Positions 6,815 to 59,158 of a DNA stretch of 64,000 nt are shown here, one piece after another (positions within the stretch are counted from its first letter, which is position 1; the number at the start of each line of letters is the position of its first letter). Source of the stretch: Candidatus Dojkabacteria bacterium (lineage in GTDB: Bacteria > Patescibacteriota > Dojkabacteria > GCA-002793355); NCBI GenBank assembly GCA_030583685.1, contig CP129470.1, positions 810,754 through 874,753 on the forward strand. The letters are read 5' to 3'. The position numbers and the translations under genes are program-made. The notes under the pieces were generated by a model. The model worked only from the letters and a program-made list of their open reading frames with translations, was not told the origin of the DNA and made no database searches.

Positions 6815-8581
6815 ATGGCACAAGTATTCAAAACAACAGATTATACAATCGGAAAACTAATGGACGATATCGAAATCGGCGATATTGCTTTGCCAGATAT
6901 TCAGCGTCCGTTCGTATGGTACAAAAAAATATCAAAAGTCCGTGATTTGTTTGATTCGATTTATCGCGGTTATCCAATCGGATATTTGCTTTTCTGGGAA
7001 AATGCCAATCGCAGTGATTATAAAAATATTGGCTTTGATGAGAAGAAAAGGAAAATTCCGAGATTTTTGATAATTGACGGACAGCAAAGATTGACGGCTC
7101 TTTTTGCCGTTATGAAAAATCAGGAAGTTTTGACCCCTGATTATGAAAGCAAAGCTATCAAAATTGCTTTTCGCCCAATAGACGCACTTTTCAAAGTCGG
7201 CGACGCGGCGACCGATCGCGACCCCGAATATATTCCCGACCTTTCAGCTCTTTGGTCTGGCGAGGGTGATTTTGCTATCATTAGCAATTTTATTTCAGCG
7301 TTAAAAGAAAAACGAGAAATCACGAAAGAAGAAGAAAAGACAATTTCCTCAAACATTCAATCACTTATAAACATCAATAAATATCCTCTCACGGCTCTTG
7401 AAATTGCTCCTAATTTAGAAGAAGAAATCGTCTCGGATATTTTTGTTCGCATAAACAGTCAAGGGGTGAGTTTGACGCAAGCTGATTTCATTTTGACTTT
7501 ACTTTCCGTCTATTGGGAAGAGGGCAGGAAAGAAATTGAGCAGTTTTGTATTGATTCAAGAAAAATTCCAGAAAAAGAAACTCGTTTTTCGTCTTTCAAT
7601 TATTTGATAAAGCCCGATCCGGACGATATGCTTCGCGTTTTAGTTGGTCTGACATTCCACCGAGCAAAAATGAAAGATGTCTACTCCATTATTCGCGGAC
7701 GCGATATGGAAACAGGAGAATTTTCAGAAGAATTGCGAACGCATCAATTTGATAAATTGAAATTAAATTTGCCGACTATCCTTGATAATACGAATTGGCA
7801 AAGTTTTCTGAAAATTCTTATTGGTGGCGGATATAAAGATGAAGAACTTATATCGTCAAAAAATGCCGTTTTGTATAGCTATATTCTTTATCTTATTGGA
7901 AAACAAAATTTCAATACGCAAAATCACGAATTGCAAAGAATTATCGGGCGCTGGTTCGTGATGTCTTCTCTGACAGGTAGATATTCTTCTTCACCAGAAA
8001 CCGCCTTTGAAAAGGATCTAAACAGAATAAAAGAGTTTAGCCACGACGGATTTATCAGCGGACTTGAAAAGATAATTGGTGAGAATTTAACCAATGATTT
8101 TTGGGATATTACGCTTGTCGGGCAAATGGAAACATCATCAGCAAGAAGCCCAGAGGCAAATGCTTTTTATGCCGCGCTCAACAAGCTAGGCTCGCCAGTT
8201 TTATTTTCTCGCAAACTTGTAGGCGATCTTTATGATCCGTCTTTAAAGATTAAAAAGAAGCGTTTGGAAAAACATCACATATTCCCACGAAATTATCTCA
8301 TTTCAAAATATGGATTTGATAAGAACAAAGACAAGGCAAAAATAAACCAGATTGCCAATCTGACATTTTTGGAATTTGAAGATAATATCGAAATCAGCGA
8401 CGACAAACCAAGCGAATATTTTGCAATGGTGCAAAAAAGGTTCGGCGAGAGCGAAATTAAAGAAATGCTGGCAGAGCACGCTATTCCAGAAAATTTTTAT
8501 CAGCTTGAATATGATACATTCCTCCAAGAAAGAAGAAAACTCATGGCGGGAGTTATAAGAAAGGCATTTAATAAAATATAA
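6815..8581 (+). CDS. DUF262 (ParB-like NTPase) plus DUF1524 (His-Me finger nuclease) protein, GmrSD/BrxU/SspE family
   Basis: N-terminal DIQRPFVW..LIIDGQQRLTALF (DGQQR motif). C-terminal EKHHIFPRNYL..NQIANLTFLEFEDN (DUF1524-like HNH motif). Confidence 0.7.
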   Translation: MAQVFKTTDYTIGKLMDDIEIGDIALPDIQRPFVWYKKISKVRDLFDSIYRGYPIGYLLFWENANRSDYKNIGFDEKKRKIPRFLIIDGQQRLTALFAVMKNQEVLTPDYESKAIKIAFRPIDALFKVGDAATDRDPEYIPDLSALWSGEGDFAIISNFISALKEKREITKEEEKTISSNIQSLININKYPLTALEIAPNLEEEIVSDIFVRINSQGVSLTQADFILTLLSVYWEEGRKEIEQFCIDSRKIPEKETRFSSFNYLIKPDPDDMLRVLVGLTFHRAKMKDVYSIIRGRDMETGEFSEELRTHQFDKLKLNLPTILDNTNWQSFLKILIGGGYKDEELISSKNAVLYSYILYLIGKQNFNTQNHELQRIIGRWFVMSSLTGRYSSSPETAFEKDLNRIKEFSHDGFISGLEKIIGENLTNDFWDITLVGQMETSSARSPEANAFYAALNKLGSPVLFSRKLVGDLYDPSLKIKKKRLEKHHIFPRNYLISKYGFDKNKDKAKINQIANLTFLEFEDNIEISDDKPSEYFAMVQKRFGESEIKEMLAEHAIPENFYQLEYDTFLQERRKLMAGVIRKAFNKI

Positions 8582-25113: not shown

Positions 25114-25187
25114 GTCCCAGTAGCTCAACTGGATAGAGCAGTCCCGTCCTAAGGGAAAGGTTGTGAGTTCGACTCTCGCCTGGGACA
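25114..25187 (+). tRNA. tRNA-Arg (anticodon CCT)
   Basis: Hand fold gives acceptor GTCCCAG/CTGGGAC, D-arm GCTC-AACTGGATA-GAGC, anticodon loop GTCCTAA (one G-A mismatch at the top of the anticodon stem), and T-arm GTGAG-TTCGACT-CTCGC. Confidence 0.75.
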
Positions 25188-25270: not shown

Positions 25271-25873
25271 ATGAAACATCAGGTTGCAAATATGGTTGTT
25301 CCGACCGTTTATGAAGAGGATCGAAGAGGATATCGCTCGTATTACGACATTTTTTCACGGCTTCTGAAAGATAGAATAATCTTTTTGAACGGACCCGTTA
25401 CCGATCAAATGGCGAATATAATTATTGCAGAAATGGTTTTCTTGGAGAAGGAAAATTCGAAGGAAGACATCCAGATGTATATTCAAAGTCCCGGAGGATC
25501 TGTCTCAGCTGGGCTTGCAATCTATGATGCAATGCAATATTTAAAACCAGATGTGGTTACTATCGGGATGGGATCGATTGCCTCTATGGCAGCGATATTG
25601 CTTACCGCAGGAGCTTCGGGTAAGCGTTTTATGCTTCCTCATGCCCGTGCAATGATTCATCAAGTGCGAGTGTCTGGTTTACCACGAATGACGGCTACAG
25701 AATTGATGGTGGAGAACGAGGAATTACAGAAAAACAAACAAACCCTTAATGCAATTATCTCAAAACATTCAGGGAGAGATCTCAAAAAAGTGTCTCAAGA
25801 TACAGAACTCGATAATTGGATGTCAGCAGAAGAAGCGGTGGCATATGGTTTAGTTGATAAGGTGTTGGCATAA
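25271..25873 (+). CDS. clpP: ATP-dependent Clp protease proteolytic subunit
   Basis: IQSPGGSVSAGLAIYD, GMGSIASMAA (Ser), MIHQ (His). Confidence 0.9.
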   Translation: MKHQVANMVVPTVYEEDRRGYRSYYDIFSRLLKDRIIFLNGPVTDQMANIIIAEMVFLEKENSKEDIQMYIQSPGGSVSAGLAIYDAMQYLKPDVVTIGMGSIASMAAILLTAGASGKRFMLPHARAMIHQVRVSGLPRMTATELMVENEELQKNKQTLNAIISKHSGRDLKKVSQDTELDNWMSAEEAVAYGLVDKVLA

Positions 25874-25894: not shown

Positions 25895-27649
25895 ATGAGC
25901 ACTGTCGATATTTCAAAATTACGCACCGCTGCAGCACATTTGCTCGCCCTTGCAGTGACTTCTTTATACAAAGATGCAAAGCTGGGTACGTTTGGAATTA
26001 CTGACCATGGTTTTTATTATGACATTGAGTTCGATGAACCAATCAGCTCTGATGAGCTTCCTGCTATTCAAGCTAAGATGCTTGAAATCGTCCTTGAAAA
26101 CGTCAAGTTTTCCCAAGAGAATAGATCGTACGATTCTGTGGTAAAAGAGTTTACGAGTAAAGAGCAACCTTATAAACGGGAACTTTTAGATGAGGTGGGG
26201 TCTCGTAAAGTGGAAATCACAATGATTGGAGGAAACGATGGGTTTATCGATTTAGCAGCAGGACCTGTTGTTGAATCGACCTCGCAGTTAGAACATTTGT
26301 GGCTATTAGATGTTTCTGGTGCATATTGGAAAGGTGATGATAAACGGTCAATGTTGACGAGAATTTCTGGTGCGTGTTTTGCCTCAGAAAAAGAACTAGA
26401 AGCCTTTCGGGAATATAGAGCTGAGCTTTTAAGAAGAGACCATCGAGTGATGGGAAAGAAACTCGGGTTTTACTCGGTTGATCCTGAAGTTGGTACGGGG
26501 CTCATTTTTTGGTCACCTCGCGGTCGATTTGTTCGAGATGCACTTGCGGGAATAATTAAACAACGAGTACTCCGTTTGGGTGCAGAGCTGGTTGAAACAC
26601 CTGTTTTAGCAAATGCAGAAAAAACAATTTTGATTACACAGCCACAATCTGAACAGGTGATTGCAAAAAGTACTCACGAAGATACAGAGCGATGGTATGC
26701 AGTTCGACAGCAAGTTGTTGGAGCGCACGTGCGAATGTTTTCTTGGAAAGAACGAAGTTATCGTGATTTACCTTGGAAAGTCGGAGAAATTGCAAAAGTT
26801 GTTCGCTACGAGAAAAGTGGTGAATTAGAAGGATTACATCGTTCTCGGGAGATTACGCAAGATACAACAACAATTGTGTGTACCCTAGAACAATTAGAAA
26901 AAGAATTAGAACTGCTCATCACGACGATTGTCGCCTTTGTCCGAGATCTTGGATTTACTGATTTCGAATTAGTATATCGACTTCCGGTTGCAACAACAAA
27001 ACAACAGAAACAGATACTTGCAGAAATTGAAACTAATGTGAAATCCATTTCTAAGAAATTGGCAATCTCGATTACCTTTGAAGCAGCTGAGCATCGTGTT
27101 ATTGCAGAACCTGAATTGGTAATGCGGGTAACCGATTCCCTGAAACAAAAACGTGAGTGGTCAAAAATACAGTTGCTTATGTCCTTGCCCATTGAGCAAC
27201 AAATTGAATATATGGGAAGCGACGGTGAGGTACATAATCCGGTCGTTATTCGTGCAACTATTGCAGGATCGTTAGAGCGAGTGATTGCAACGATGATTGA
27301 GCATTACGCGGGAGTACTCCCGTTGTGGTTGACCTACGAACATGCACGAGTAATTCCAGTAACGAGTAAACAAGAGCTGTATGCGGAGAAGGTCGCCAGA
27401 CAACTGCTTGAACGGGGGATTAGGGCAACCATCGATTCAGATGCAGAACCATTGGAAGGCAAAATTAAACAAGCAGAAGAGGAGAAAGTACCTTATATGC
27501 TTATTGTCGGTGAAAAAGAACAAACGACAAATGGAATTTCTGTCAGGGTTCAAGGACATGGCGATATTGGACTACTTGACATTGAAACGTTTATTCGAGA
27601 TATTCAAGGAGAAATTTCAAGTAAATCAATTAAATCTGCGCTCATATAA
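25895..27649 (+). CDS. thrS: threonyl-tRNA synthetase homologue (N2 editing-like, class II catalytic and anticodon-binding domains; no TGS domain); zinc-ligand positions appear substituted
   Basis: The architecture and many ThrRS blocks are present (..RDLPWKVGEIAKVVRYEKSGELEGLHRSREITQDTTTIV.., ..GSLERVIA.., and the anticodon-binding C-terminus). Where ThrRS has CHRNE / QDDAHIF / MIHRA, this protein has VVRYE / QDTTTIV / VIRAT. Confidence 0.8.
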   Translation: MSTVDISKLRTAAAHLLALAVTSLYKDAKLGTFGITDHGFYYDIEFDEPISSDELPAIQAKMLEIVLENVKFSQENRSYDSVVKEFTSKEQPYKRELLDEVGSRKVEITMIGGNDGFIDLAAGPVVESTSQLEHLWLLDVSGAYWKGDDKRSMLTRISGACFASEKELEAFREYRAELLRRDHRVMGKKLGFYSVDPEVGTGLIFWSPRGRFVRDALAGIIKQRVLRLGAELVETPVLANAEKTILITQPQSEQVIAKSTHEDTERWYAVRQQVVGAHVRMFSWKERSYRDLPWKVGEIAKVVRYEKSGELEGLHRSREITQDTTTIVCTLEQLEKELELLITTIVAFVRDLGFTDFELVYRLPVATTKQQKQILAEIETNVKSISKKLAISITFEAAEHRVIAEPELVMRVTDSLKQKREWSKIQLLMSLPIEQQIEYMGSDGEVHNPVVIRATIAGSLERVIATMIEHYAGVLPLWLTYEHARVIPVTSKQELYAEKVARQLLERGIRATIDSDAEPLEGKIKQAEEEKVPYMLIVGEKEQTTNGISVRVQGHGDIGLLDIETFIRDIQGEISSKSIKSALI

Positions 27650-28254
27650 TGAGAGATACACGATACCCTTATAACCCTCGCTTTGGAGGTGGAAGTACGT
27701 ATACCCGTACTGGTGGATACACACCACGACCTCGTCAACAAGTTTTTGATCCATTGGAAAGAGAGTTTCCTCGGAATCATGCAATTACCGCACAAGAAGT
27801 ACGAGTTATTGGTTCTGACGGTGAGAATCTCGGGGTTATGATGCGAGATGAAGCAATTTCTCGTGCAGAATCTGAAGAATTAGACCTCGTTATGATTGCT
27901 CCTCAGGCAAAACCTCCCGTTTGTAAAATTACCACATGGGAATCTTTCAAATATCAGCACAAAAAGAAAGAGAAGGAAATGAGGAAGCATTCAAAATCGA
28001 TTAAAGTAAAAGAAATTAAGGTAAGTCCCAAAATCGCTGGGAGCGATCTCGAAAGAAAAGTTGAAAAGATCCTTGAAATAACGGAGAAAGGTGATCAAGT
28101 AAAAATTACGATTATGAGAAGGTGGCCAGTGACTGAAGAAGCAGCCCGCAAATTCAAGGATGTTATGTTGACAAAAATTCAAGAATCCTGTACTATCATC
28201 AGCATTCAAGAAAAGGGTAAGAATATCTATATCTTGGTGAAATCTAATAAGTAG
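27649..28254 (+). CDS. infC: translation initiation factor IF-3
   Basis: ..AQEVRVIGSDGENLGVM..DLVMIAP.AKPPVCKI.. and the C-terminal domain KEIKVSPKI..DLERKV..GDQVKITIMRR. The ATG overlaps the thrS stop (TAATG). The ORF carries an unusual Gly/Arg/Tyr-rich N-terminal extension of about 30 aa, so the true start may be internal. Confidence 0.85.
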   Translation: MRDTRYPYNPRFGGGSTYTRTGGYTPRPRQQVFDPLEREFPRNHAITAQEVRVIGSDGENLGVMMRDEAISRAESEELDLVMIAPQAKPPVCKITTWESFKYQHKKKEKEMRKHSKSIKVKEIKVSPKIAGSDLERKVEKILEITEKGDQVKITIMRRWPVTEEAARKFKDVMLTKIQESCTIISIQEKGKNIYILVKSNK

Positions 28255-28261
28255 AATACTA

Positions 28262-28453
28262 ATGCCGAAACTAAAAACCAACAAAACATTAATGGCTCGA
28301 GTAAAGCTCACGCCAAATGGGAAGCTCGTCAGAAAGCGAGCATTTTCGGCACACCTTAGAAGCAAAAAATCTTCCTCAGCTCGAGCAAGAACTGCAGCGA
28401 AAAAGGTTGATTCTATTAAACGATATCCATGGAATAAACTGGTACAAGGATAA
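28262..28453 (+). CDS. rpmI: 50S ribosomal protein L35
   Basis: MPKLKTNKTLMARVKLTPNGKLVRKRAF.. and its position in the infC-rpmI-rplT operon. Confidence 0.8.
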   Translation: MPKLKTNKTLMARVKLTPNGKLVRKRAFSAHLRSKKSSSARARTAAKKVDSIKRYPWNKLVQG

Positions 28454-28455
28454 AT

Positions 28456-28794
28456 ATGCGAGTAAAAAGCGGAACAGTAACAGCACGGCGACACAAGAAA
28501 ATTCTCAAACGAGCGAAAGGCTACCGTTTGTCGCATAGCAAGAATGTCAGAAAAGCAATTGAAACACTCCTTCATGCACGACAATATTCGTATGTTGCGC
28601 GTAAGAAGCGACCTGGTCAATTTAAGAAGTTGTGGATTCAAAGAATTGGACTTGCACTCGAAGAGTTTGGAATGAGTTATTCCAAATTTATGGCAAACCT
28701 AAAAACCGCGAAGGTTGAACTTAACAGAAAAATGCTAGCGGAATTAGCTGTTAAGCAACCGGAGATCTTTAAAAAGATCGCGAAATTAGGTTAG
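28456..28794 (+). CDS. rplT: 50S ribosomal protein L20
   Basis: MRVKSGTVTARRHKKILKRAKGYRLSHSKNVRKA.. Confidence 0.9.
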   Translation: MRVKSGTVTARRHKKILKRAKGYRLSHSKNVRKAIETLLHARQYSYVARKKRPGQFKKLWIQRIGLALEEFGMSYSKFMANLKTAKVELNRKMLAELAVKQPEIFKKIAKLG

Positions 28795-28805
28795 TCATAT
28801 GATTC

Positions 28806-29870
28806 ATGGCAATAAACAAAATTGAGCGAGTACTGCGTGATCAGGTTACTCAACTGACACAAAAACTTTCAAAAATTACTCAAGCTGAAGAAATTTATCC
28901 GTTGCGGTCCCTTTATACGGGAAAGGAGAGTGAATTACAAAAAGCATTAGGATTGCTTAAAGATTTGCCCAAAGAAGAACGTCCAACTGCTGGCTCCCTT
29001 ATTAATGCAACTAAACGTGAGCTTGAGCAGGCAATTTCCGAGAAATTAACGAAGCTTTTGTCTGAAGAACTTGCTGCACAAGATGCGGTACGAGATATTG
29101 ATGTGACGGCGCCTTTTCACGTGAATATGCCAGATGTTCCAAAATTACCGAGAGTTGGTTCGTTGCACCCACTCCAGCACGAAATTAACCGAATGTTAAC
29201 GATTTTTACGACAATGGGGTTTACGCCATTTGAAGGGAGAGAAGTTGATTCAGATTATTATGTGTTTGATTCTCTCAACATGCCTAAGGAGCACCCTGCT
29301 CGCCAGAATTGGGATACATTCCGAACCGAGGACAATCTGATTCCGACCCCACACACCTCTAACATGCAGGTTCGCGTGATGCGAAAAATGAAGACAGCGC
29401 CATTACGTGCCGTAATTTATGGTCGCGTTTCTCGAAATGAAGCCATTGATGCGGTCCATGGGCACACATTTTATCAAATTGAAGGACTGTATATTGATAA
29501 GGGAGTTAGTATTAGCAATATGATTGCCACAATAAATGCCTTTGTAGAGGCATTTTTCGGGCGAAAAGTTACGGGAAAGGTCCAGCCGGGATATTTTCCT
29601 TTTGTTGAACCTGGAATTGAGTATATGGGGCAATGTCCCTTCTGTGAAGGCGCTGGATGTGGTTCCTGTAAGCATACAGGGTGGCTCGAGTTGGTTGGAG
29701 CAGGGATGATTCATCCGAGCGTTTTACGCGAAGGTGGATTTGACCCAGCAGTGTATAGCGGTTTTGCGTGGGGATTAGGGCTTGATAGAATGGTCATGCA
29801 ACGGAATGGCATCCAAGATATTCGCTCTCTCTTTTCAAGTGATATAAGATTTCTGAGCTCAGCAGTATGA
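28806..29870 (+). CDS. pheS: phenylalanyl-tRNA synthetase alpha subunit
   Basis: HPARQNWDTF, FRTEDNLIPTPHTS and class II motifs. Confidence 0.9.
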   Translation: MAINKIERVLRDQVTQLTQKLSKITQAEEIYPLRSLYTGKESELQKALGLLKDLPKEERPTAGSLINATKRELEQAISEKLTKLLSEELAAQDAVRDIDVTAPFHVNMPDVPKLPRVGSLHPLQHEINRMLTIFTTMGFTPFEGREVDSDYYVFDSLNMPKEHPARQNWDTFRTEDNLIPTPHTSNMQVRVMRKMKTAPLRAVIYGRVSRNEAIDAVHGHTFYQIEGLYIDKGVSISNMIATINAFVEAFFGRKVTGKVQPGYFPFVEPGIEYMGQCPFCEGAGCGSCKHTGWLELVGAGMIHPSVLREGGFDPAVYSGFAWGLGLDRMVMQRNGIQDIRSLFSSDIRFLSSAV

Positions 29871-32440
29871 AATACTCACTCACACAGATCAAAAAATACA
29901 TCCCAGAACTTGTCACAATTCCTACTGATGAATTGATCACTCGAATTTGGGGGTCGATTGCTGAGGTTGAGAGCGTGGTCGATTATAAAAAGAAATTTGA
30001 AGGGATTGTGGTTGCAAAAGTGCTGTCAGTTGAGGAACATCCTCGGTCATCAAAATTAGTTGTAGCAACCGTTGATTGTGGTGCTTCAGAACCGGTAACT
30101 GTGGTTACTGGCGCAAAGAACTTTGCAGTTGGTGATTTCGTTCCCTATCTTTCAGTTGGTGCAACTGTCCCTGCAATGACGGATGAGCAGGGAAATCCTT
30201 TAGAAATCGAAATAAGAACGATGGTTGGCATTCCTTCTGTTGGTATGTTGGCAAGCGAACGAGAACTGGGATTGAGTGACGATCATAGCGGAATTATGAT
30301 TCTGCGCCCTGAGGAAGTACGCTTTGACCTTGTCCCTGGGGCAGCACTTTCCTCGGTACTTGAATATGATGACGTCATTTTTGAGATTGAGAATAAATCA
30401 TTAACGCACCGTGGAGATTGTTTTTCTAATGCAGGAATAGCACGTGAAATTGCAACTTTGTATAACCTGCCTGTCACGATTCCTGAATGGCAACTTCCCT
30501 CACAGCAAACTGCAGATTTACTTGGTAAAGAGTTTGATAAGGAATTGCCATGCAAAATTTCAATCAAGTTATCTGCATTATCAGCAGTGGAAAGGTATTC
30601 AGCTATAGTGCTTGATGGTGTGCAAGTTCGTCCCTCACCGCTTTGGTTACGAGCTTATTTAACAAAACACGGTATTAATCCGGTCAATAATGTCGTTGAT
30701 GTTACTAACTATGTGATGCTTGAATATGGTCAGCCAATGCACGCTTTTGATGCATCGACCGTATTGCACAAGACAAGAGATGAAAAAGTGGACTTCCAAA
30801 TTGACGTCAGATTTTCCGAAGGTGGAGAAAAATTAGAAACACTCGATGGAAAAGTAAGAACTCTAGGACAGAACGTAACATTGATTACTGACACACAAGA
30901 ACCTCTTGCGCTTGCAGGAATAATCGGCGGGAAAGCATCAGGAATTACTGCTGACTCAACAAGAATTATTCTAGAATCTGCGGTATTCAATAAATATGCA
31001 ATTCGAAACGCAAGCATGGCATTGGGGGTTACCACAGATGCCTCAATTTTGTTCTCCCGAAAACAAGATCCAGAAAAAACAGTCAGAGCGTTATTGCGCG
31101 CAGTACATTTATTACAAGAACTGGCAAGCGCTCAGGTTGTTTCACCAATAGCTGATGACTATCCTCCGCAAAAATTATCAACAACAATTGTCGTTTCTCA
31201 TGAAAAATTAGAGGAATTCCTTGGTATTGCACTGTCGGTGGGAAATGTAGAACAGATCCTTACGGGGCTCGGGTGTGAGGTGCAACGAAAAAACGGGATG
31301 TATAGAATTGACACTCCCTCTTGGCGGCCAGATCTTGCAATTGACGAAGATATTTATGAAGAAATCGCCCGCATGGTAGAGTATAAAAATATTACTCCTG
31401 AATTACCCAAAAGAGGAATTTTTGGCGTTTCTTTGGATTCTTACGAACAGGTGAAGCAAACAATTCTCTCTGTGTTGACAGGAATAGGATACAGCCAAGG
31501 TATGAACTTTAGTTTTGTGAGTAAAGATCAGTACTCGTTGTGTCGAGTATCACTTGATGATGCTCAAAAAATTTCTAATGCAATTTCACCTGATGTCCAG
31601 TATATGAGAAAGCATGTATTGCCCGGTCTCTTCAGTCAGTTAACGAAAAATCAGTATAACGCACCTCTTTTCGGAATTTTTGAAATTGGAAAAACGTCTC
31701 GTCGTACCATGCGATATACTGGTGCACCTGTCGAAGAATTGCATATGCCTGAATCCTCTTTCGGCATTGATGAGTTGGGTTTGCCTATAGAAGACGAGCA
31801 TCTCTCGCTCGGTATTATCGATGATTCAAAACAACCAGGGTATTTTACGTTGAAGCATTCTATTGAGACGCTTGCAGCACGTTTGCGTATGACTGTATCA
31901 TTCTTGCATCCTTCCTCACTTTCGGCAAAGGAAAAGAAAGCACTTCCCGTTTGGTTAGTTGAACTGCTTTCGTTTTATCGCGAAGGGCGGGTTGCTCTCA
32001 TTTATGCTGGTGACCAAGAGGTATTGGGTGTCATAGGAGAGCCAAAGTCTGCCATTCTAACCGATGCCGGAATTACCAAGCAAATTGCACTTGCAGAGGT
32101 GAGTTTGCCAAAATTAAGTCGGTTTGCAACACTTGATCCTGTATATACCGAACCATCAAGATATCCAACAGTTACGGAAGATTATTGTTTCGAAGTACCT
32201 GTGTCTGTAGCGTATTCGTCTATCATTCAGAAAATCGAGAAGGCAGCACTTCTTTACAAAGCTGAAGTTACTGTTTCTTTGCGACCTCGTGATATTTTCC
32301 AAAAGAAAGAAGAAACGAAGCAGGTCACTGTAAGTGTTACCTACATGCCACTGAAGCAATCACTCTCTGAGAGAGAAGTACAAATGTATAGAAACTCACT
32401 CGTTTTCTCTGTTCAAGAAGTCGGTGGGAAATTGGTATAA
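29867..32440 (+). CDS. pheT: phenylalanyl-tRNA synthetase beta subunit
   Basis: N-terminal tRNA-binding OB domain, B3/4 and B5 domains, and a 4-nt overlap with pheS. Confidence 0.9.
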   Translation: MKYSLTQIKKYIPELVTIPTDELITRIWGSIAEVESVVDYKKKFEGIVVAKVLSVEEHPRSSKLVVATVDCGASEPVTVVTGAKNFAVGDFVPYLSVGATVPAMTDEQGNPLEIEIRTMVGIPSVGMLASERELGLSDDHSGIMILRPEEVRFDLVPGAALSSVLEYDDVIFEIENKSLTHRGDCFSNAGIAREIATLYNLPVTIPEWQLPSQQTADLLGKEFDKELPCKISIKLSALSAVERYSAIVLDGVQVRPSPLWLRAYLTKHGINPVNNVVDVTNYVMLEYGQPMHAFDASTVLHKTRDEKVDFQIDVRFSEGGEKLETLDGKVRTLGQNVTLITDTQEPLALAGIIGGKASGITADSTRIILESAVFNKYAIRNASMALGVTTDASILFSRKQDPEKTVRALLRAVHLLQELASAQVVSPIADDYPPQKLSTTIVVSHEKLEEFLGIALSVGNVEQILTGLGCEVQRKNGMYRIDTPSWRPDLAIDEDIYEEIARMVEYKNITPELPKRGIFGVSLDSYEQVKQTILSVLTGIGYSQGMNFSFVSKDQYSLCRVSLDDAQKISNAISPDVQYMRKHVLPGLFSQLTKNQYNAPLFGIFEIGKTSRRTMRYTGAPVEELHMPESSFGIDELGLPIEDEHLSLGIIDDSKQPGYFTLKHSIETLAARLRMTVSFLHPSSLSAKEKKALPVWLVELLSFYREGRVALIYAGDQEVLGVIGEPKSAILTDAGITKQIALAEVSLPKLSRFATLDPVYTEPSRYPTVTEDYCFEVPVSVAYSSIIQKIEKAALLYKAEVTVSLRPRDIFQKKEETKQVTVSVTYMPLKQSLSEREVQMYRNSLVFSVQEVGGKLV

Positions 32441-42566: not shown

Positions 42567-43577
42567 ATGCCCATGCTACGTCGTAAACAGATACCAAACC
42601 GTCTTAATGTTCGCAAGAAAAGAATTAGTATCTCGCCAAAGATTCAAAAAGTTATTGGGAGAGGAAGCCTACTTCTCCTCAGTGTGAGTATACTTGCGTT
42701 TTTTGCAGTTTCTGGTTGGGGTGCAATTTCAAAAGCAATAAATGAGTCATATCGTCCAGGAGTAGCAAAATTTTCTGCGTGTTCACCCTTATTTCTTCAA
42801 GTCAAAACAAAACCACTTTATGGGGTTATTCTTCGTACGGAAGGTTCATTTGTCAAGGATATTTTTTTAACCTCACCTACGACAACGGGCTCAGTCAAAG
42901 CAATTAGACTGACCAGCTCAGATTGGGTACCAGTATATTTCTCAAAAAACTTTACCTTCACTCAAATCGGAGAAATATTACGATTAAGCCGATTAGAAAC
43001 AGGTGATTATGATCCTTGTTATGTTATTGAACAGCTCTCACTCACAAGCGGTGTTCCTGTTGAGTATATTCTCATCGATGATTCCGAGAAGGGCTTGCAG
43101 ACAACGGTGACCATCGCGGAAGCACAGGAATTACTCCGAGGAATTGAGCAAAATACACCATTACAATTGAGAACAAACCTACTCGGATTAAGAAAGTTAG
43201 ACGACGGAACCGAAGTATCTGTGATTACCTATGAAGCATTTCGAGAACAATACCCTGACTTCTTCAAAATCGATGAGATCGCTCAGGAGCAGGCATTCGT
43301 TGAAGTTTATAATGCAACTGATATCTCTGGGTATGCAAGTATAGTTTCACGAAAATGGGCGATGTTAGGGATTGATATTTCTCGGATTGGCAATGCAACA
43401 TACGAAGAAGTAGGGGATGCACTTGCGGTGATGTACGTTCGTGATAGTTTGGCGTACTCACGAACTCAAGCGATCATCAAGAGTTCTTTTCCCAACGGAA
43501 AACTAGTTGTTAAGGAGGGGAGACCAAGTAATTTAGTGACAACCGGGGATATTGTAGTATTCTTGATTAAACGGTAG
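42567..43577 (+). CDS. membrane-anchored protein with a LytR_C-like C-terminal domain
   Basis: N-terminal TM. The C-terminus (VEVYNATDISGYASIVSRKWAMLGIDISRIGNATYE) resembles the LytR_C (LCP-associated) domain. Confidence 0.35.
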   Translation: MPMLRRKQIPNRLNVRKKRISISPKIQKVIGRGSLLLLSVSILAFFAVSGWGAISKAINESYRPGVAKFSACSPLFLQVKTKPLYGVILRTEGSFVKDIFLTSPTTTGSVKAIRLTSSDWVPVYFSKNFTFTQIGEILRLSRLETGDYDPCYVIEQLSLTSGVPVEYILIDDSEKGLQTTVTIAEAQELLRGIEQNTPLQLRTNLLGLRKLDDGTEVSVITYEAFREQYPDFFKIDEIAQEQAFVEVYNATDISGYASIVSRKWAMLGIDISRIGNATYEEVGDALAVMYVRDSLAYSRTQAIIKSSFPNGKLVVKEGRPSNLVTTGDIVVFLIKR

Positions 43578-43586
43578 AATGGAGAG

Positions 43587-46007
43587 ATGAATACGCCCCT
43601 TGTTATTTTCCTAATTGCTCTTGGCATTGTCTTTTTTCTGTTTCTCCTCATTATGCTCTGGCCAAGGAAGAGAAACACCGATGCTTTCCCTGTCGGGACA
43701 GAAGAAACGTTACAAGGAAATACGAAAGTTATTCTCAAAATAGAGGTCCCCCGAAATAACGATAAAACACCGCTTGCGGCAGAGCAATTATTTGCCTCAC
43801 TTCATGGTCTGTACAAGGATGGAGCAAGAATTCCGATTCTAAGCCTAGAGTTGGCGTCCAATTCACGCATGGGGGTTCAATTTTATGTTGTTGTTCACAG
43901 TGCGGTTGCCTCATTTGTCAAAGGTCAAATATATGCGCAGTATCCTGCTGCAGAGATTGGAGTTGTCTCTGATTACATGGATACCGCAGAAACCTGGGAT
44001 CAATCTACACAAGTCTCTGCTGGTGAAATTGTGCTCGAAAGAGAGCATATTTTTCCATTGAAAACGTTCAAAGATTTTGATGTTGATCCTTTGTCAGGAA
44101 TAACAGGAGCAATTAGCGAACTCAAAGGTGACGAAGAGGCTTGGTTGCAAATGGTTATTCGACCATACCCAAATATTTGGCAAAAAGTTTCACAGAAATA
44201 TATTTCTGCTTTACGAGCGGAAGGAAGCAGTATTTTCGAAGCAAACGGTTTTTGGAAAGCATTTTGGTCGGTTTTTGCAGGATTCTTCAGATTCTTTGCT
44301 GATTCGTTAACCTATGATCCAGATAAACCGCAGCAAGTAAAAGTTCCTTCAGTTCGCTTAGAGCCGTACCAAGAGGAAGAAATCAAAAGAGTAGAAGCAA
44401 AAGCGGAAAAACAAGGGTTTCAAGTTGTTATACGAGTTCTTTCTAAGAGTCGTGACTCAGCGCGTGCTGCTCAGATTTTTGAAGGAATTGCTGCATCCTT
44501 TCGGCAGTATGCAACGGCACACTTGAATGCGTTTTCGCTGAATCTGTCGAAACAACCTGCTACGGTTTTTACACAAATGAAGGCGCGATATATGTCCCAA
44601 TTACACGAAGAGATATTGAATATTGAAGAAATTGCGTCTTTATATCACTTACCAAATACAGCAGGTGAAGCGACCTCGTTGTTTGTGACAACCGCAGGGA
44701 AGTTACCTCCACCCGTAGATTTACCCATTGGCGAAGGTACGTTGTTCGCTCGTACAAACTATCGCGGAGAAAGTCATGAATTTGGCATACTCCCGCGTGA
44801 TAAGCGACGTCACGCATATATAATCGGTCGTACAGGAACAGGAAAGACAAGTCTTATGCGAAATATGATTGTCTCTGACATCATGGCAGGCGAAGGTGTT
44901 GGGTTAATTGACCCGCATGGTGAGACTGCCGAATTTATTCTTGATCATATACCTGCGCACCGTGTTGAGGATGTTATTTATTTTAATCCCGGAGATATTG
45001 AGTATCCAGTTGGTTTCAATCCGATTTATGTGAAGGACAAGTCACAGCGAGATTTAATTGCAGACAATATTATTGGCGTCTTCAAAAAATATTTTGATTC
45101 GTGGGGACCACGGTTAGAATATATTTTATACAACACCATCCTTTCGGCGTTAGACTCACAAGGTACGACATTACTTTCGGTACAGCGGATGCTTACTGAC
45201 ACAGAATATAGAAAGCGTGTTCTATCGCATGTGAAAGACCCAATGATTCACCGATTTTGGCGTGAAGAATTCAGTATGATTGAGGAAAATCGCAAACTGC
45301 TGTCTGATGCGGTTGCACCAATTCAGAACAAAATTGGGCGCTACTTGTCACCAAGAATTGTCAGAAACATTTTGGGCCAAACCAAATCAACCTTTAATAT
45401 TCGCGAAATGATTGATAGTAAGAAAATTTTCATTGCAAATCTTTCCAAAGGTAGAATTGGCGAAGAAAATACCGCGTTACTTGGTGGCTTGCTCATTGCA
45501 CGAATTTATACCGCAGCAATGGAGCGCGCTGATCAACCTGACGAAGAACGAACAGACTTTTCACTGTACATTGATGAGGTTCAGAGCTTTACGACTGATG
45601 CCTTTGTCAATATTTTGTCTGAAGCACGAAAGTATCGACTCTCCTTGGTAATTAACCATCAATTCACTGAGCAGTTGCCACCCAATATGCGAGCAGGAAT
45701 TTTTGGAAATGTAGGAACGATGATCACCTTTAGTGTCAGCCAGAAAGATGCAGTCGAATTGTCTCAAGAATTTGCCCCTTACGTAACACCAGAAGATATT
45801 CTTTCACTTCCCAATTATCATATCTATTTAAGAATGATTATTAAGGATAGGATTTCTGAACCTTTCAGTGCCGTTTCACTACCGTTTCGTTTCCAAAGCT
45901 TTGGTTATAAAGACATCATTAAGCAGAAATCACGTGAGAAGTATGCTGTTCCCCGAGAAGTGATAGAAGAAAAGATCCAGAGGTGGGTAGAGAATAAGGG
46001 GGAGTGA
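43587..46007 (+). CDS. VirD4/TraG/TrwB-like type IV coupling-protein-family ATPase (FtsK-HerA superfamily), membrane-anchored
   Basis: N-terminal TM (VIFLIALGIVFFLFLLIMLW). Walker A HAYIIGRTGTGKTSLMRNM followed by LIDPHGE (T4CP-like DPxGE). Walker B LYIDEVQSF. RKYRLSLVINHQFTEQL (TrwB-like). Confidence 0.6.
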   Translation: MNTPLVIFLIALGIVFFLFLLIMLWPRKRNTDAFPVGTEETLQGNTKVILKIEVPRNNDKTPLAAEQLFASLHGLYKDGARIPILSLELASNSRMGVQFYVVVHSAVASFVKGQIYAQYPAAEIGVVSDYMDTAETWDQSTQVSAGEIVLEREHIFPLKTFKDFDVDPLSGITGAISELKGDEEAWLQMVIRPYPNIWQKVSQKYISALRAEGSSIFEANGFWKAFWSVFAGFFRFFADSLTYDPDKPQQVKVPSVRLEPYQEEEIKRVEAKAEKQGFQVVIRVLSKSRDSARAAQIFEGIAASFRQYATAHLNAFSLNLSKQPATVFTQMKARYMSQLHEEILNIEEIASLYHLPNTAGEATSLFVTTAGKLPPPVDLPIGEGTLFARTNYRGESHEFGILPRDKRRHAYIIGRTGTGKTSLMRNMIVSDIMAGEGVGLIDPHGETAEFILDHIPAHRVEDVIYFNPGDIEYPVGFNPIYVKDKSQRDLIADNIIGVFKKYFDSWGPRLEYILYNTILSALDSQGTTLLSVQRMLTDTEYRKRVLSHVKDPMIHRFWREEFSMIEENRKLLSDAVAPIQNKIGRYLSPRIVRNILGQTKSTFNIREMIDSKKIFIANLSKGRIGEENTALLGGLLIARIYTAAMERADQPDEERTDFSLYIDEVQSFTTDAFVNILSEARKYRLSLVINHQFTEQLPPNMRAGIFGNVGTMITFSVSQKDAVELSQEFAPYVTPEDILSLPNYHIYLRMIIKDRISEPFSAVSLPFRFQSFGYKDIIKQKSREKYAVPREVIEEKIQRWVENKGE

Positions 46008-46008
46008 A

Positions 46009-47955
46009 TTAGTAATTCCCTTGAGCATCTCTTAAGGATATAGGAATGCCTCTTTCTCTAAGTATTGCTTGTATGGTTGTTGCCGTTACTCCATTTTTCC
46101 TCAGAGTTGTAATAATTTCTGCTACCCCTGGCGCAGGAGCCGGGGCCGCTTGAGGTGGCGTTTGCGGTGGTTGTCGTGGGGGCGTGGTTCCCGTAGTGGC
46201 ATCCACTTTTAATACAGGGACTTTCGTTGAAACCATACGCGAATGTTGTAATGAAAAATCGTTACTCTTTAATCGACGAGCCATTACGCCAACGAATTTG
46301 TCTACACGTGAACCAGTCCATGCGTTGGAATCACCTGCATTACTTCGCAGCATCTCTTGAGCTACTCCGTTAAGTAAGGATGTCGCGGTCTCTATAAATT
46401 CCAAAAAATTAGCAATATCTGCCATAGAATTCTGCGTGTTGTTGAGGAACGAATTCTCCAAAAAGTGTATGATTTGTTGATCAATATTCTTTTTAAATTC
46501 TCGTAAGAAGACTACAGGGGTATTCTTAGCGTTTTGCTTTGGTGCTTGTATCGCTTCATCAATAATCTCATCTAAAAAAAGAATCGCTCTGTTGTAAGTT
46601 GATAGATTATTCTCTATTTGATTTAGTTTCTCTGATAATCTTCCACTCTTATCACCTATAAACTCAAGAAAATTAATTCTCTGTTTATTCCTCTTCTCTT
46701 GTTTTGTAAACAAAGTAATAGAGTACGGTCGAGTGAGTCTAACTATACGTTTCGCTCCCATTCTTGTTACGAATTCCTTTAACGTATATTTAACGTCATC
46801 AATTCCTGGAACAAGTGTTCCTCTCCAAAACTTGTTTTGAACGGATACTCTTTCATTTTGATAGTCTACTAGTTCATTGAAAATTATTCGAAATCTATTC
46901 TGTAATTTCAAGAAGAAGTTATGGTCTTCAAAGCGTGGGTCATACTTGTAGAGAGTCATTTTTAAACGAAGTAGCTGTAAGGAAGTAAAAAAGGTTTGAA
47001 TGTCGATATTCATAAGACTAAGGGCCTCATAGATGTTGGCGCTTGGTCTGAGATAGGTGTATTCGGCAATATTCATTACCATTCGCATGAGTGGACCTTT
47101 CTTCTTCTTTACCTCGTTGTACCAGGCAAAAGCCCGTTCATATTGTCTTGCATGATCTCCATCTTTTCTTTGAACTGCTGTAATCTTTTTGTCAATTGTT
47201 ATATTGTAATGACCATGTTTGTCAGTAGCGTCTGCTGTCCTTCGCGTAAAGTTATAAACTCCTAATGCCTTTGTCGGGTTATTCGGGGCATGAGCTTTTG
47301 CAATAAAAGCGGCCGTCATATCGATAAGGTTCAGGTTTTTAGGGATACTTTGGTGCGGTTTATAAGAAAATGGATTTCCCTCTTCAGGTACCACTCTGAG
47401 AGAATTATCGGCATTTCTATTTTGCTTTTTTGCGGCTTCAAATAAAGTGTCTATAAACTTTCCAATATCTTCAGGCCGAGTATCTCTTCTCGAAATTAGT
47501 CGATTAAACCTAGCAAGAGTACCAGAATCGTTTGCAATCACCAATGCGATTGGGAGAACTCCAAATTGATAAAGAAATGCAGACTTATCTGTTTCCCATG
47601 ATCCTGTTCGATATTCTATTTTAAAAAATTTAAATTTTTCTGCAATAAGGGGAATTGATTGTGGAGGGCGACGTTCATTACGTCGAGCTGAAAATTCAAT
47701 ATGTTCCAATACTTCGTATAAATATCGAGGAAATACTGTCGCTTTTTCAAACCCTACTGAGAGGTTTGTTAACAATTTATGTACCTCTGGATTTGTTTGT
47801 GCCAAATTATCCACCATTCTCACAATGCTGCTTGTCCTCAAAGAATTTTCTTGAGAGGCATCCTTAGAGGTAGTTTGAAAAAGTAATTTAACAATCGGAG
47901 CTGTTACGTGTAGTTCATTTCGATTCTGAGTTTCGTGTAGATAAGTGTGAGCCAT
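46009..47955 (-). CDS. large hypothetical protein (648 aa) with a Pro-rich linker and a C-terminal helix-hairpin-helix (SAP/Rho-N-like) motif
   Basis: No family recognised. Internal ..RTADATDKHGHYNITI.. (D..HxH..N, loosely relaxase/HUH-like). C-terminal PPRQPPQTPPQAAPAPAPG followed by VAEIITTLRKNGVTATTIQAILRERGIP. Confidence 0.5.
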   Translation of the reverse strand: MAHTYLHETQNRNELHVTAPIVKLLFQTTSKDASQENSLRTSSIVRMVDNLAQTNPEVHKLLTNLSVGFEKATVFPRYLYEVLEHIEFSARRNERRPPQSIPLIAEKFKFFKIEYRTGSWETDKSAFLYQFGVLPIALVIANDSGTLARFNRLISRRDTRPEDIGKFIDTLFEAAKKQNRNADNSLRVVPEEGNPFSYKPHQSIPKNLNLIDMTAAFIAKAHAPNNPTKALGVYNFTRRTADATDKHGHYNITIDKKITAVQRKDGDHARQYERAFAWYNEVKKKKGPLMRMVMNIAEYTYLRPSANIYEALSLMNIDIQTFFTSLQLLRLKMTLYKYDPRFEDHNFFLKLQNRFRIIFNELVDYQNERVSVQNKFWRGTLVPGIDDVKYTLKEFVTRMGAKRIVRLTRPYSITLFTKQEKRNKQRINFLEFIGDKSGRLSEKLNQIENNLSTYNRAILFLDEIIDEAIQAPKQNAKNTPVVFLREFKKNIDQQIIHFLENSFLNNTQNSMADIANFLEFIETATSLLNGVAQEMLRSNAGDSNAWTGSRVDKFVGVMARRLKSNDFSLQHSRMVSTKVPVLKVDATTGTTPPRQPPQTPPQAAPAPAPGVAEIITTLRKNGVTATTIQAILRERGIPISLRDAQGNY

Positions 47956-58630: not shown

Positions 58631-59158
58631 ATGACCCAAGAAGAATTAGCAGAATTCTACGATGCACATATTGAAAAAATATATAGATTCTTCTTTTACA
58701 AAGTCGCTAACAGAGTCATTGCTGAGGATTTAACCAGCCAAACCTTTTTGCAATTCGTAAAAGCACTAAAAAAGCAGGAGTTTGAGAATACAAAAGCATA
58801 CCTGTACGGAATAGCCAAATTCGTTCTCCTAGATTACCTTCGTCAGAAGTATAAGCGGGTAGAAATCCCCTTAGATGATGAAATTGATTATTCTGTAGAA
58901 ATGGGGGTACAGCATCTTGATGTCTTTACTTTACTTGAGAAATTTCTTCCACAGTTGCCTAAAAAGCAACAGGAGATTCTAACCCTTCGCTTTATCGAAA
59001 AAAATAGCGTGAGTGAAACTGCAAAGAGAATCGGGAGAGACGTAAACTATGTGAGCACAACCCAAAAAAGAGCATTTCATTCACTTCGAAAGTTGCTCGA
59101 CTGTACAGATGCTTCGACTAATATTACAGAGGAACAAACAGATGAAACAGAAACATAG
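58631..59158 (+). CDS. ECF-type RNA polymerase sigma factor
   Basis: Region 2 (..FFYKVANRVIAEDLTSQTFLQF..) and region 4 HTH (..QQEILTLRFIEKNSVSETAKRIGRDVNYV..). Confidence 0.75.
   Translation: MTQEELAEFYDAHIEKIYRFFFYKVANRVIAEDLTSQTFLQFVKALKKQEFENTKAYLYGIAKFVLLDYLRQKYKRVEIPLDDEIDYSVEMGVQHLDVFTLLEKFLPQLPKKQQEILTLRFIEKNSVSETAKRIGRDVNYVSTTQKRAFHSLRKLLDCTDASTNITEEQTDETET

Follow-up and report, generated by a model that had tools for sequence, protein, structure and literature searches.

A zinc-less and editing-less threonyl-tRNA synthetase orthologue with a rebuilt, conserved active-site pocket in a Dojkabacteria lineage

Zinc-mediated discrimination between threonine and valine is the standard mechanism of threonyl-tRNA synthetase (ThrRS). 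Crenarchaea possess a split system of ThrRS-cat and ThrRS-ed, the latter a Ser-tRNA(Thr) hydrolase (NF011500), and the ThrRS of Mycoplasma is editing-defective and retains a zinc-dependent aminoacylation site. Seryl-tRNA synthetase (SerRS) occurs in zinc-dependent and zinc-independent types, which provide two chemistries for one hydroxy-amino acid, and HisZ is a catalytically altered relative of the aminoacyl-tRNA synthetases (aaRS) that, like SLIMP, exists as a paralogue beside an active enzyme. Catalytically altered relatives of this kind also include SLIMP itself and the pseudo-dimeric TyrRS (PMC9437257); the same source describes the T2 ThrRS of Anabaena, the zinc ligands of which are not addressed there, and the Zur-regulated ThrRS paralogues are known to retain the zinc-binding residues (PMC2770081). 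In PMC12003907 the HxxxH/CxxxH editing motif of ThrRS-Ed is described as invariant across life, and mistranslation of Thr codons is reported as tolerated. In the literature that we searched, neither a ThrRS devoid of zinc nor any unusual ThrRS feature of Dojkabacteria and the Candidate Phyla Radiation (CPR) is described. In this communication we describe the thrS orthologue in a stretch of 64,000 nucleotides (hereafter the window) from a Candidatus Dojkabacteria bacterium (contig CP129470.1, positions 810,754 to 874,753), which has lost both the zinc ligands and the editing residues and in which the rebuilt active-site pocket is under purifying selection.

The residues of the window protein were assigned by HMMER alignment to the ThrRS of E. 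coli (1qf6) and S. aureus (1nyq), with which several MAFFT alignments concur. All three zinc ligands are replaced, Cys334 by Val275, His385 by Thr326 and His511 by Arg453. An initial annotation, made by eye, had already proposed the loss of the whole triad, which proves to be real, heritable and common to an entire clade at 54-71% identity; its reading of His385 as threonine and of His511 as absent agrees with both kinds of alignment, and its reading of Cys334 as valine is correct in residue state and wrong in placement, since the cysteine of 'GSCHRNE' is Cys361 and the true Cys334 site is also valine by coincidence. The surroundings of the lost metal site have changed likewise. Asp383, which contacts the threonine hydroxyl, is Thr324, the active-site residues Lys465, Thr482 and Tyr462 are Glu407, Lys424 and Ala404, respectively, the last at a position that is variable across the zinc-less clade, and Gly463 is Glu405. 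His309 corresponds to Gln249 inside a rebuilt loop, in a register made uncertain by a deletion of 2 residues.

The editing site is affected as well. The HxxxH pair His73/His77 ('RHSCAH') is Thr11/His15 ('RTAAAH') in the window protein, and the CxxxH pair Cys182/His186 ('DMCRGPH') is Ala121/Val125 ('DLAAGPV'), so that the previously suspected loss of editing histidines stands as a loss of the site, the pair then indicated ('AHLLGHA') being the wrong one. Of the N2 (editing-type) domain the window protein keeps His77 (His15), Lys156 (Lys94) and Asp180 (Asp119). Within the clade His186 is lost in all members and both Cys182 and His73 are variable; the entropy of the editing residues is 0.94, compared with a mean of 1.08 for the N2 domain and with 0.00 in every other Dojkabacteria group. 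The editing site of the zinc-less clade is decayed and drifting.

The residues expected of a class II synthetase are largely preserved. In motifs 2 and 3 and in the core the protein retains Arg363 (Arg304), Glu365 (Glu306), Arg375 (Arg316), Gln381 (Gln322), Gln484 (Gln426), Ser517 (Ser459) and Arg520 (Arg462), which include the motif-2 arginine of 'VVRYE' (Arg304) and the motif-3 arginine of 'GSLER' (Arg462) recognised at the outset; Arg304, Glu306, Arg316 and Arg462 are invariant throughout the zinc-less clade. The anticodon-recognition residues Glu600 (Glu542) and Arg609 (Arg551) are also retained and are invariant in all groups compared.

A homologue search of a set of 5.8 billion proteins returned 16 clusters (P0001-P0016) at 54-100% identity to the window protein, beyond which the matches fall to 38% and are canonical ThrRS. 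The same zinc-less state and identical synteny are found in 15 proteins at 54-71% identity, and all full-length members of the clade carry valine, isoleucine or leucine at position 334, threonine (once valine) at 385 and arginine at 511. The initial annotation had named a proper alignment and a comparison with sister genomes as checks, and both give the same answer: no Cys/His/His is placed at the zinc positions, the losses recur in three independent alignments, and the triad is absent in 15/15 clade members, whereas the 105 canonical ThrRS sequences compared, like all canonical sequences of further alignments, possess it without exception. The variant is rare: when 1.84 billion representatives were searched exhaustively by profile, the zinc-less type appeared as a single full-length representative and a single fragment.

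What has replaced the canonical pocket is to a large extent fixed. If conservation of at least 95% in the 105 canonical sequences is taken to define a canonical-invariant position, of which there are 140, we find that the zinc-less clade keeps 71, relaxes 50 and switches 19, the switched positions carrying a new invariant or near-invariant residue, for example His511Arg, Lys465Glu, Gly463Glu, Thr482Lys and His385Thr. Arg453 is invariant in the clade, as are Gln249, Pro250, Glu253 and Ala257 of the rebuilt loop; Arg271, Gln272 and Gln273 are fixed, and 14/14 members share Glu405, Glu407, Lys424 and Gln426. The gene is also under recent purifying selection. Of the codons that differ in thrS between two strains of the window species, 7 are synonymous and 2 non-synonymous, and the adjoining genes look similar; these differences were counted within the species, since between-species pairs are 30-45% diverged and their synonymous sites would saturate.

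Whether a pocket is drifting can be expressed as an entropy ratio, that is, the Shannon entropy of the active-site positions divided by that of the catalytic-domain background. Two sets of positions were used, one of 23 positions chosen on the basis of the E. coli structures with the whole catalytic domain as background, and the other of the 81 canonical-invariant positions of the catalytic domain with the remaining positions as background. In this order the ratios are 0.10 and 0.15 for canonical Dojkabacteria, 0.23 and 0.31 for a subgroup in which Cys334 is threonine (THH), 0.44 (P ~1e-4 by resampling) and 0.49 for the zinc-less clade, 0.99 and 0.73 for proteins in which zinc is lost and the motif arginines are kept, and 1.08 and 0.84 for orthologues with a degenerate, or dead, aminoacylation site. 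In a dead pseudo-synthetase the active-site positions should be no slower than the domain, and in the zinc-less clade they are slower by both measures. Purifying selection therefore acts on the rebuilt pocket, which sets it apart from a true pseudo-site. This selection speaks against a dead site that drifts freely and makes a plain relic less likely, although the pocket might be held for structural reasons; the options of the initial annotation, namely altered specificity, a pseudo-synthetase or recognition without zinc, are thereby narrowed, with both the first and the last of them remaining.

The whole protein is predicted with confidence to have a ThrRS fold. An AlphaFold2 model built with a 99-sequence alignment, to which canonical ThrRS sequences had been added, has a predicted local distance difference test score (pLDDT) of 91.8 and template-modelling (TM) scores of 0.86-0.90 to 1qf6 and 1nyq over 584-589 columns, and its confidence dips only in two loops, the rebuilt one at residues 241-270 and that of motif 2 at 301-310. 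When the alignment is restricted to the 14 clade sequences the pLDDT is 68.7, residues 232-321 fall below 50 and the core is unreliable, so that the confidence of the model in the rebuilt region stems largely from canonical homologues.

The chromosomal setting identifies the gene as the original thrS. In the window the order is tig, tRNA-Arg(CCT), clpP, thrS, infC, rpmI, rplT, pheS and pheT, in keeping with the classic thrS-infC-rpmI-rplT-pheST arrangement recognised in the initial annotation. A scan of GTDB species genomes returned five zinc-less loci, those of Dojkabacteria CG_4_10 and SJ560, of two metagenome-assembled genomes (MAGs) labelled Saccharibacteria and of BroJett019 (BOKM01000001.1, 1.05-Mb contig), and in addition locus L008 of the Dojkabacteria genome CP129477.1, which is complete. 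The zinc-less genomes include the JADYZG01 assembly. L008 and the four zinc-less loci with full flanks have in common the order tig, tRNA-Arg, clpP, thrS, infC, rpmI, rplT, pheS, pheT, pbp1a, recG; the contig of the fifth, L005, is 6.7 kb long and extends only from thrS to pheT. Relatives that are canonical throughout, P0129, P0130 and P0133, are also found between clpP and infC. Since canonical thrS genes of Dojkabacteria occupy the same operon slot, the window gene is a positional orthologue, the ancestral thrS altered in place, and not an extra copy. As a separate observation, the records of L005 (CAZCKT010000050.1) and L006 (CAZGEO010000002.1), which combine a zinc-less thrS with Dojkabacteria-type synteny, read 'uncultured Candidatus Saccharibacteria bacterium', which is probably a taxonomic mislabel.

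The other Dojkabacteria orthologues differ widely in what they have lost. The L008 protein (P0125; CP129477.1, 4730-6499) is the closest relative with all zinc and threonine residues. It belongs to a sister group (P0125-P0128) in which all four editing residues are lost; of its members, P0125 and P0126 still have the zinc pocket, P0127 carries Cys334Tyr and His385Tyr, and P0128 carries Cys334Asn, Arg363Lys, Asp383Glu and Tyr462Gln. Dozens of Dojkabacteria/WS6 orthologues in the same clpP-thrS-infC slot have a degenerate and hypervariable aminoacylation site (loci L017, L019, L020, the last in the complete genome CP129475.1, and L021, some on contigs of 0.7-1.2 Mb; also WS6 OLB20; proteins including P0259, P0393-P0405, P0418-P0424, P0430, P0435, P0336 and P0351). 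These dead-site orthologues have lost the zinc ligands, Arg363, Glu365, Lys465, Gln484 and often Arg520, but the editing site (His73, His77, Cys182, His186) is perfect in all of them and the anticodon residues are retained, the identity of the catalytic domain being 0.28 compared with 0.64 for N2. They appear to be a bacterial equivalent of the trans-editing ThrRS-ed of archaea. The window clade and the dead-site radiation fall on separate branches, each sister to canonical lineages, of a tree computed from N2 and anticodon domains by neighbour joining on BLOSUM distances.

A further subgroup (P0410, P0412, P0413, P0416, P0422, P0425, P0426, P0428, P0429), likewise in the operon slot (L024, L025), has an invariant Cys334 to threonine substitution, a variable Asp383 and otherwise canonical active-site residues, and could represent a second kind of altered zinc site. 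Quite apart from thrS, the AlaRS genes of L019, L020, L021 and L024, 6-9 kb upstream of it, encode only 625-647 aa (tRNA-synt_2c plus tRNA_SAD).

Annotation pipelines do not separate these forms. On the TIGR00418 thrS profile, with a curated cut-off of 383.65 bits, canonical Dojkabacteria ThrRS scores 721, the dead-site orthologues 403-469 and the window protein 423.3 bits; the degenerate forms (window protein, P0403, P0421, P0128, P0014) all exceed the cut-off, at 403-498 bits, and because they pass it they are named threonine--tRNA ligase. The window protein is itself deposited as WKZ23935.1 (P0121; 'MAG: threonine--tRNA ligase [Candidatus Dojkabacteria bacterium]', 100% identical, on the 888,748-bp contig). 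A pass on TIGR00418 is no proof of activity, because the dead-site orthologues pass as well.

A second ThrRS-like open reading frame (ORF) was absent from the 64-kb window, as judged by tblastn, for which both the window protein and E. coli ThrRS served as queries, and by Pfam on 20 large ORFs; the 'only visible thrS' of the initial annotation thus holds for the window. A query of the 5.8-billion-protein set with the closest zinc-containing relative gave, among its best 120 matches, no protein from a contig of 888,748, 668,260, 383,677 or 1,051,512 bp. Candidates for such a copy were set aside: P0129, P0130 and P0133 are operon orthologues of other lineages, and the Cys334Thr protein P0425 is likewise an operon orthologue. 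P0363 and P0380, which might pass for 'catalytic-only' ThrRS, look like N-terminally truncated gene calls that start at a conserved internal methionine; each is preceded by a short upstream ORF, and P0363 lies in the thrS-infC slot. A role of the window protein itself as a trans-editing enzyme of the ThrRS-ed type (Ser-tRNA(Thr) hydrolase) was rejected, its editing residues being lost or variable.

Because the rebuilt pocket is under purifying selection, we infer that the protein still uses it, and we lean, tentatively, to the reading that it serves tRNA-Thr in a zinc-free manner and is probably the ThrRS of the cell. In this one lineage of Dojkabacteria, within the CPR (Patescibacteria), the proofreading site has decayed and the zinc pocket has been replaced by a fixed polar and charged set (Gln249, Arg271, Gln272, Gln273, Thr326, Glu405, Glu407, Lys424, Arg453, Thr455). 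The class II machinery for ATP and the adenylate is kept in Arg304, Glu306, Arg316, Gln322, Gln426, Ser459 and Arg462, and the residues that bind the tRNA-Thr anticodon in Glu542 and Arg551. In the mechanism we envisage, an amino acid would be activated with ATP and loaded on tRNA-Thr by a zinc-independent, non-editing enzyme with no Cys/His/His site. In such a pocket Arg453 may take the place of the ligand His511, the acidic pair Glu405/Glu407 could either hold the amino group of the substrate or coordinate a hard metal (Mg, Mn), Thr324 and Thr326 could hydrogen-bond the side-chain hydroxyl, and Lys424 could stand in for the lost Lys465. That the lineage in fact charges tRNA-Thr in this manner, with threonine recognised in an Arg/Glu/Thr-lined or hard-metal pocket, is a somewhat more doubtful proposition, in which catalysis, the identity of the amino acid and the standing of the protein as the only ThrRS would all have to hold.

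Several observations weigh against zinc-free charging by the window protein. A zinc-free ThrRS has no precedent known to us, and the evolutionary intermediates are hard to imagine for an essential single-copy enzyme. Some ATP-site positions are altered, Phe379 being isoleucine in the window protein and Val376, Gln479 and Lys465 differing too. The zinc-less thrS evolves faster than the canonical gene, which indicates that its constraint is partly relaxed: pairs of zinc-less loci have thrS identities of 55-69% and pheS identities of 70-74% (ratio 0.77-0.96), compared with 77.6% and 62% (ratio 1.25) for a canonical pair and with a ratio of 0.66 for a dead-site pair. Similarly, the anticodon-binding domain (ABD) is the most conserved domain of the clade, with a mean pairwise identity of 0.72 compared with 0.59 for the catalytic domain and 0.58 for N2, and the catalytic/ABD ratio is 0.82, compared with 1.23-1.37 in canonical ThrRS. 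The independent and differing site decay in the sisters P0127 and P0128 is easiest to explain if catalysis by thrS had already become dispensable, and the dead-site genomes must obtain Thr-tRNA-Thr from another source. A second ThrRS elsewhere in the genome, the chief rival explanation, is plausible, because sister lineages with dead aminoacylation sites need another enzyme, and a foreign or divergent one is a live possibility with searches that span the window and the best 120 matches. The faster evolution of thrS, the high conservation of the ABD and the decay in the sisters, along with the degeneracy of both catalytic sites, would fit a relic or pseudo-synthetase, in which a second ThrRS charges tRNA-Thr and the operon copy persists as a non-catalytic, dimeric tRNA-Thr binder (a partner, chaperone or regulator) with a pocket of structural value only; the many fully dead orthologues in the same slot imply that a second source of ThrRS exists in the class, and since Dojkabacteria carry an archaeal/eukaryal-type TyrRS (PMC5370408), replacement of an aaRS by transfer does occur there. 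We nevertheless consider a relic somewhat unlikely, given that the entropy ratio of the pocket is 0.44-0.49 compared with 0.84-1.08 in truly dead orthologues, that the replacements are fixed and not variable, that no second ThrRS was seen in the window or among the best 120 matches, that the genome has only 0.89 Mb, and that canonical lineages stand between the zinc-less and dead-site clades in the tree, which opposes vertical inheritance of a second gene.

Were a second ThrRS to supply Thr-tRNA-Thr, the rebuilt pocket could alternatively adenylate a different substrate, for instance another amino acid or a precursor destined for tRNA-Thr or a tRNA-Thr-like RNA, or for an acceptor other than tRNA. 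A neofunctionalised ligase of this sort would account for a pocket that is constrained yet fully re-lined with new charges (Arg453, Lys424, Glu405, Glu407) and for the retention of the ATP-binding arginines and the anticodon-binding residues, and aaRS duplicates of altered specificity are known, such as ProRSx (PMC9437257). The gene, however, is a positional orthologue with no sign of a duplicate, no conserved new neighbour such as a modifying enzyme or carrier protein sets the zinc-less loci apart from L008, and no candidate substrate can be named, so that we rate this reading as unlikely. An artefact of misalignment, of sequencing or assembly, or of a decaying pseudogene might be suspected from the two misplacements in the by-eye alignment, but it is in effect ruled out by the concurrence of the HMMER and MAFFT alignments, by the identical protein found in independent assemblies, by the absence of any frame disruption in 15 full-length homologues and by the excess of synonymous differences (7 versus 2) noted above. 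Zinc-free use of the pocket thus retains, with the reservations expressed, our preference.

The features of the locus are collected in Table 1. The window protein shows the N2 editing domain, class II core and HGTP anticodon-binding architecture, N2 by predicted fold; Pfam places tRNA-synt_2b at residues 263-471 and HGTP_anticodon at 484-571, and gives no match to tRNA_SAD or TGS in this protein. The TAA of thrS and the ATG of infC share one base (TAATG). No tRNA-Thr gene was found in the window or in the retrieved flanks of related loci.

Table 1. Coordinates of the thrS orthologue, its parts and its neighbours in the window
Feature	Coordinates	Strand	Basis or remark
tRNA-Arg(CCT), conserved upstream synteny marker	25114..25187	+	ARAGORN on window, L003, L004, L006, L007, L008
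clpP, upstream neighbour in conserved operon context	25271..25873	+	ORF list, synteny
thrS orthologue, 584 aa, ThrRS-like, zinc-less and editing-less	25895..27649	+	ORF list, TIGR00418, AlphaFold2 model
N2 (editing-type) domain scaffold, residues 1-163	25895..26383	+	alignments; catalytic residues lost; TGS domain absent upstream
His73 to Thr11 codon, N2 domain	25925-25927	+	
Cys182 to Ala121 codon, N2 domain	26255-26257	+	
His186 to Val125 codon, N2 domain	26267-26269	+	
Class II catalytic core, residues ~190-480	26462..27334	+	Pfam tRNA-synt_2b, predicted fold
Rebuilt active-site loop 'ITQPQSEQVIAK', residues 247-258	26633..26668	+	replaces canonical 'SGHxxxYxxxMF' loop bearing His309
'RQQVVGAH', residues 271-278, equivalent to canonical 'KPMNCPGH'; Cys334 site is Val275 (26717-26719)	26705..26728	+	alignments
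Motif 2; Asp383 to Thr324, His385 to Thr326 (26870-26872)	26798..26878	+	alignments
Strands with fixed replacements Glu405, Glu407, Lys424, plus Gln426 (Gln484) and Ala404	27104..27172	+	alignments
'VVIRATIAGSLER'; His511 to Arg453 (27251-27253), Ala513 to Thr455, motif 3 Gly458/Ser459/Glu461/Arg462 kept	27242..27280	+	alignments
ABD, clade signature EP[LI]EGKIKQAEE[DE]KVPY	27335..27646	+	Pfam HGTP_anticodon
infC	27649-28254	+	downstream of thrS
rpmI	28262-28453	+	downstream of thrS
rplT	28456-28794	+	downstream of thrS
pheS	28806-29870	+	downstream of thrS
pheT	29867-32440	+	downstream of thrS; downstream block spans 27649..32440

Elsewhere in the window, the predicted initiation factor IF3 carries an N-terminal extension (27647-27780) in which Arg, Gly, Tyr and Pro are abundant and which is ~45 residues long, and as the called length of IF3 ranges from 138 to 220 aa across related loci the true start of infC is uncertain. 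A GmrSD-type restriction endonuclease (GmrSD_N plus GmrSD_C) is encoded at 6815-8581 (+) in this very small genome, and an 806-aa protein with TrwB/HerA-like coupling-ATPase domains at 43587-46007 (+); near the latter lie large ORFs of 336, 648 and 658 aa (42567-43577, 46009-47955 and 59109-61085) for which Pfam gives no match.

Two outcomes can be foreseen, either a second, zinc-free way of recognising threonine or an unrecognised replacement ThrRS in the Dojkabacteria class. The former, if true, would break a supposedly universal mechanistic feature of ThrRS. Genome surveys overstate the presence of functional ThrRS in CPR bacteria, and the Dojkabacteria orthologues, among which the editing and the aminoacylation site are each lost or retained in all possible combinations, constitute a natural experiment in the partitioning of aaRS functions.

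With canonical ThrRS (1qf6, 1nyq) the window protein shares the domain order, the predicted fold, the operon position, the motif 2 and 3 arginines and Glu600/Arg609; it differs in having neither the zinc triad nor Asp383, Tyr462, Lys465, His309 and the editing residues Cys182, His186 and His73, and in the absence of a TGS domain, a trait of other CPR ThrRS as well, and its identity to the solved structures is 28-31%. With P0125 of L008 (Dojkabacteria cMAG.19) it has in common the gene order from tig to recG, the ABD signature, the C-terminal tail (...KSxLV) and the lost editing residues, whereas P0125 keeps Cys334, Asp383, His385, Tyr462, Lys465, His511 and His309, at an identity of 39% overall and 33% in the catalytic domain. 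The zinc-stress paralogues (Anabaena T2 and the Zur-regulated ThrRS) are likewise variants linked to zinc economy, but they are extra copies, whereas here a single orthologue is visible. SLIMP, HisZ, the altered TyrRS and SerRS, none of them a ThrRS, provide precedents for aaRS folds without canonical catalysis or for dual modes of recognition. The Mycoplasma enzyme offers a parallel for the natural loss of editing residues in a reduced genome, and differs in that its zinc site is kept. Finally, ThrRS-ed and the dead-site Dojkabacteria orthologues resemble the window protein in combining a degenerate aminoacylation site with an intact ABD, but the dead-site proteins pair a perfect editing site with a drifting core (identity 0.28, entropy ratio ~1), and the window protein presents the opposite arrangement.

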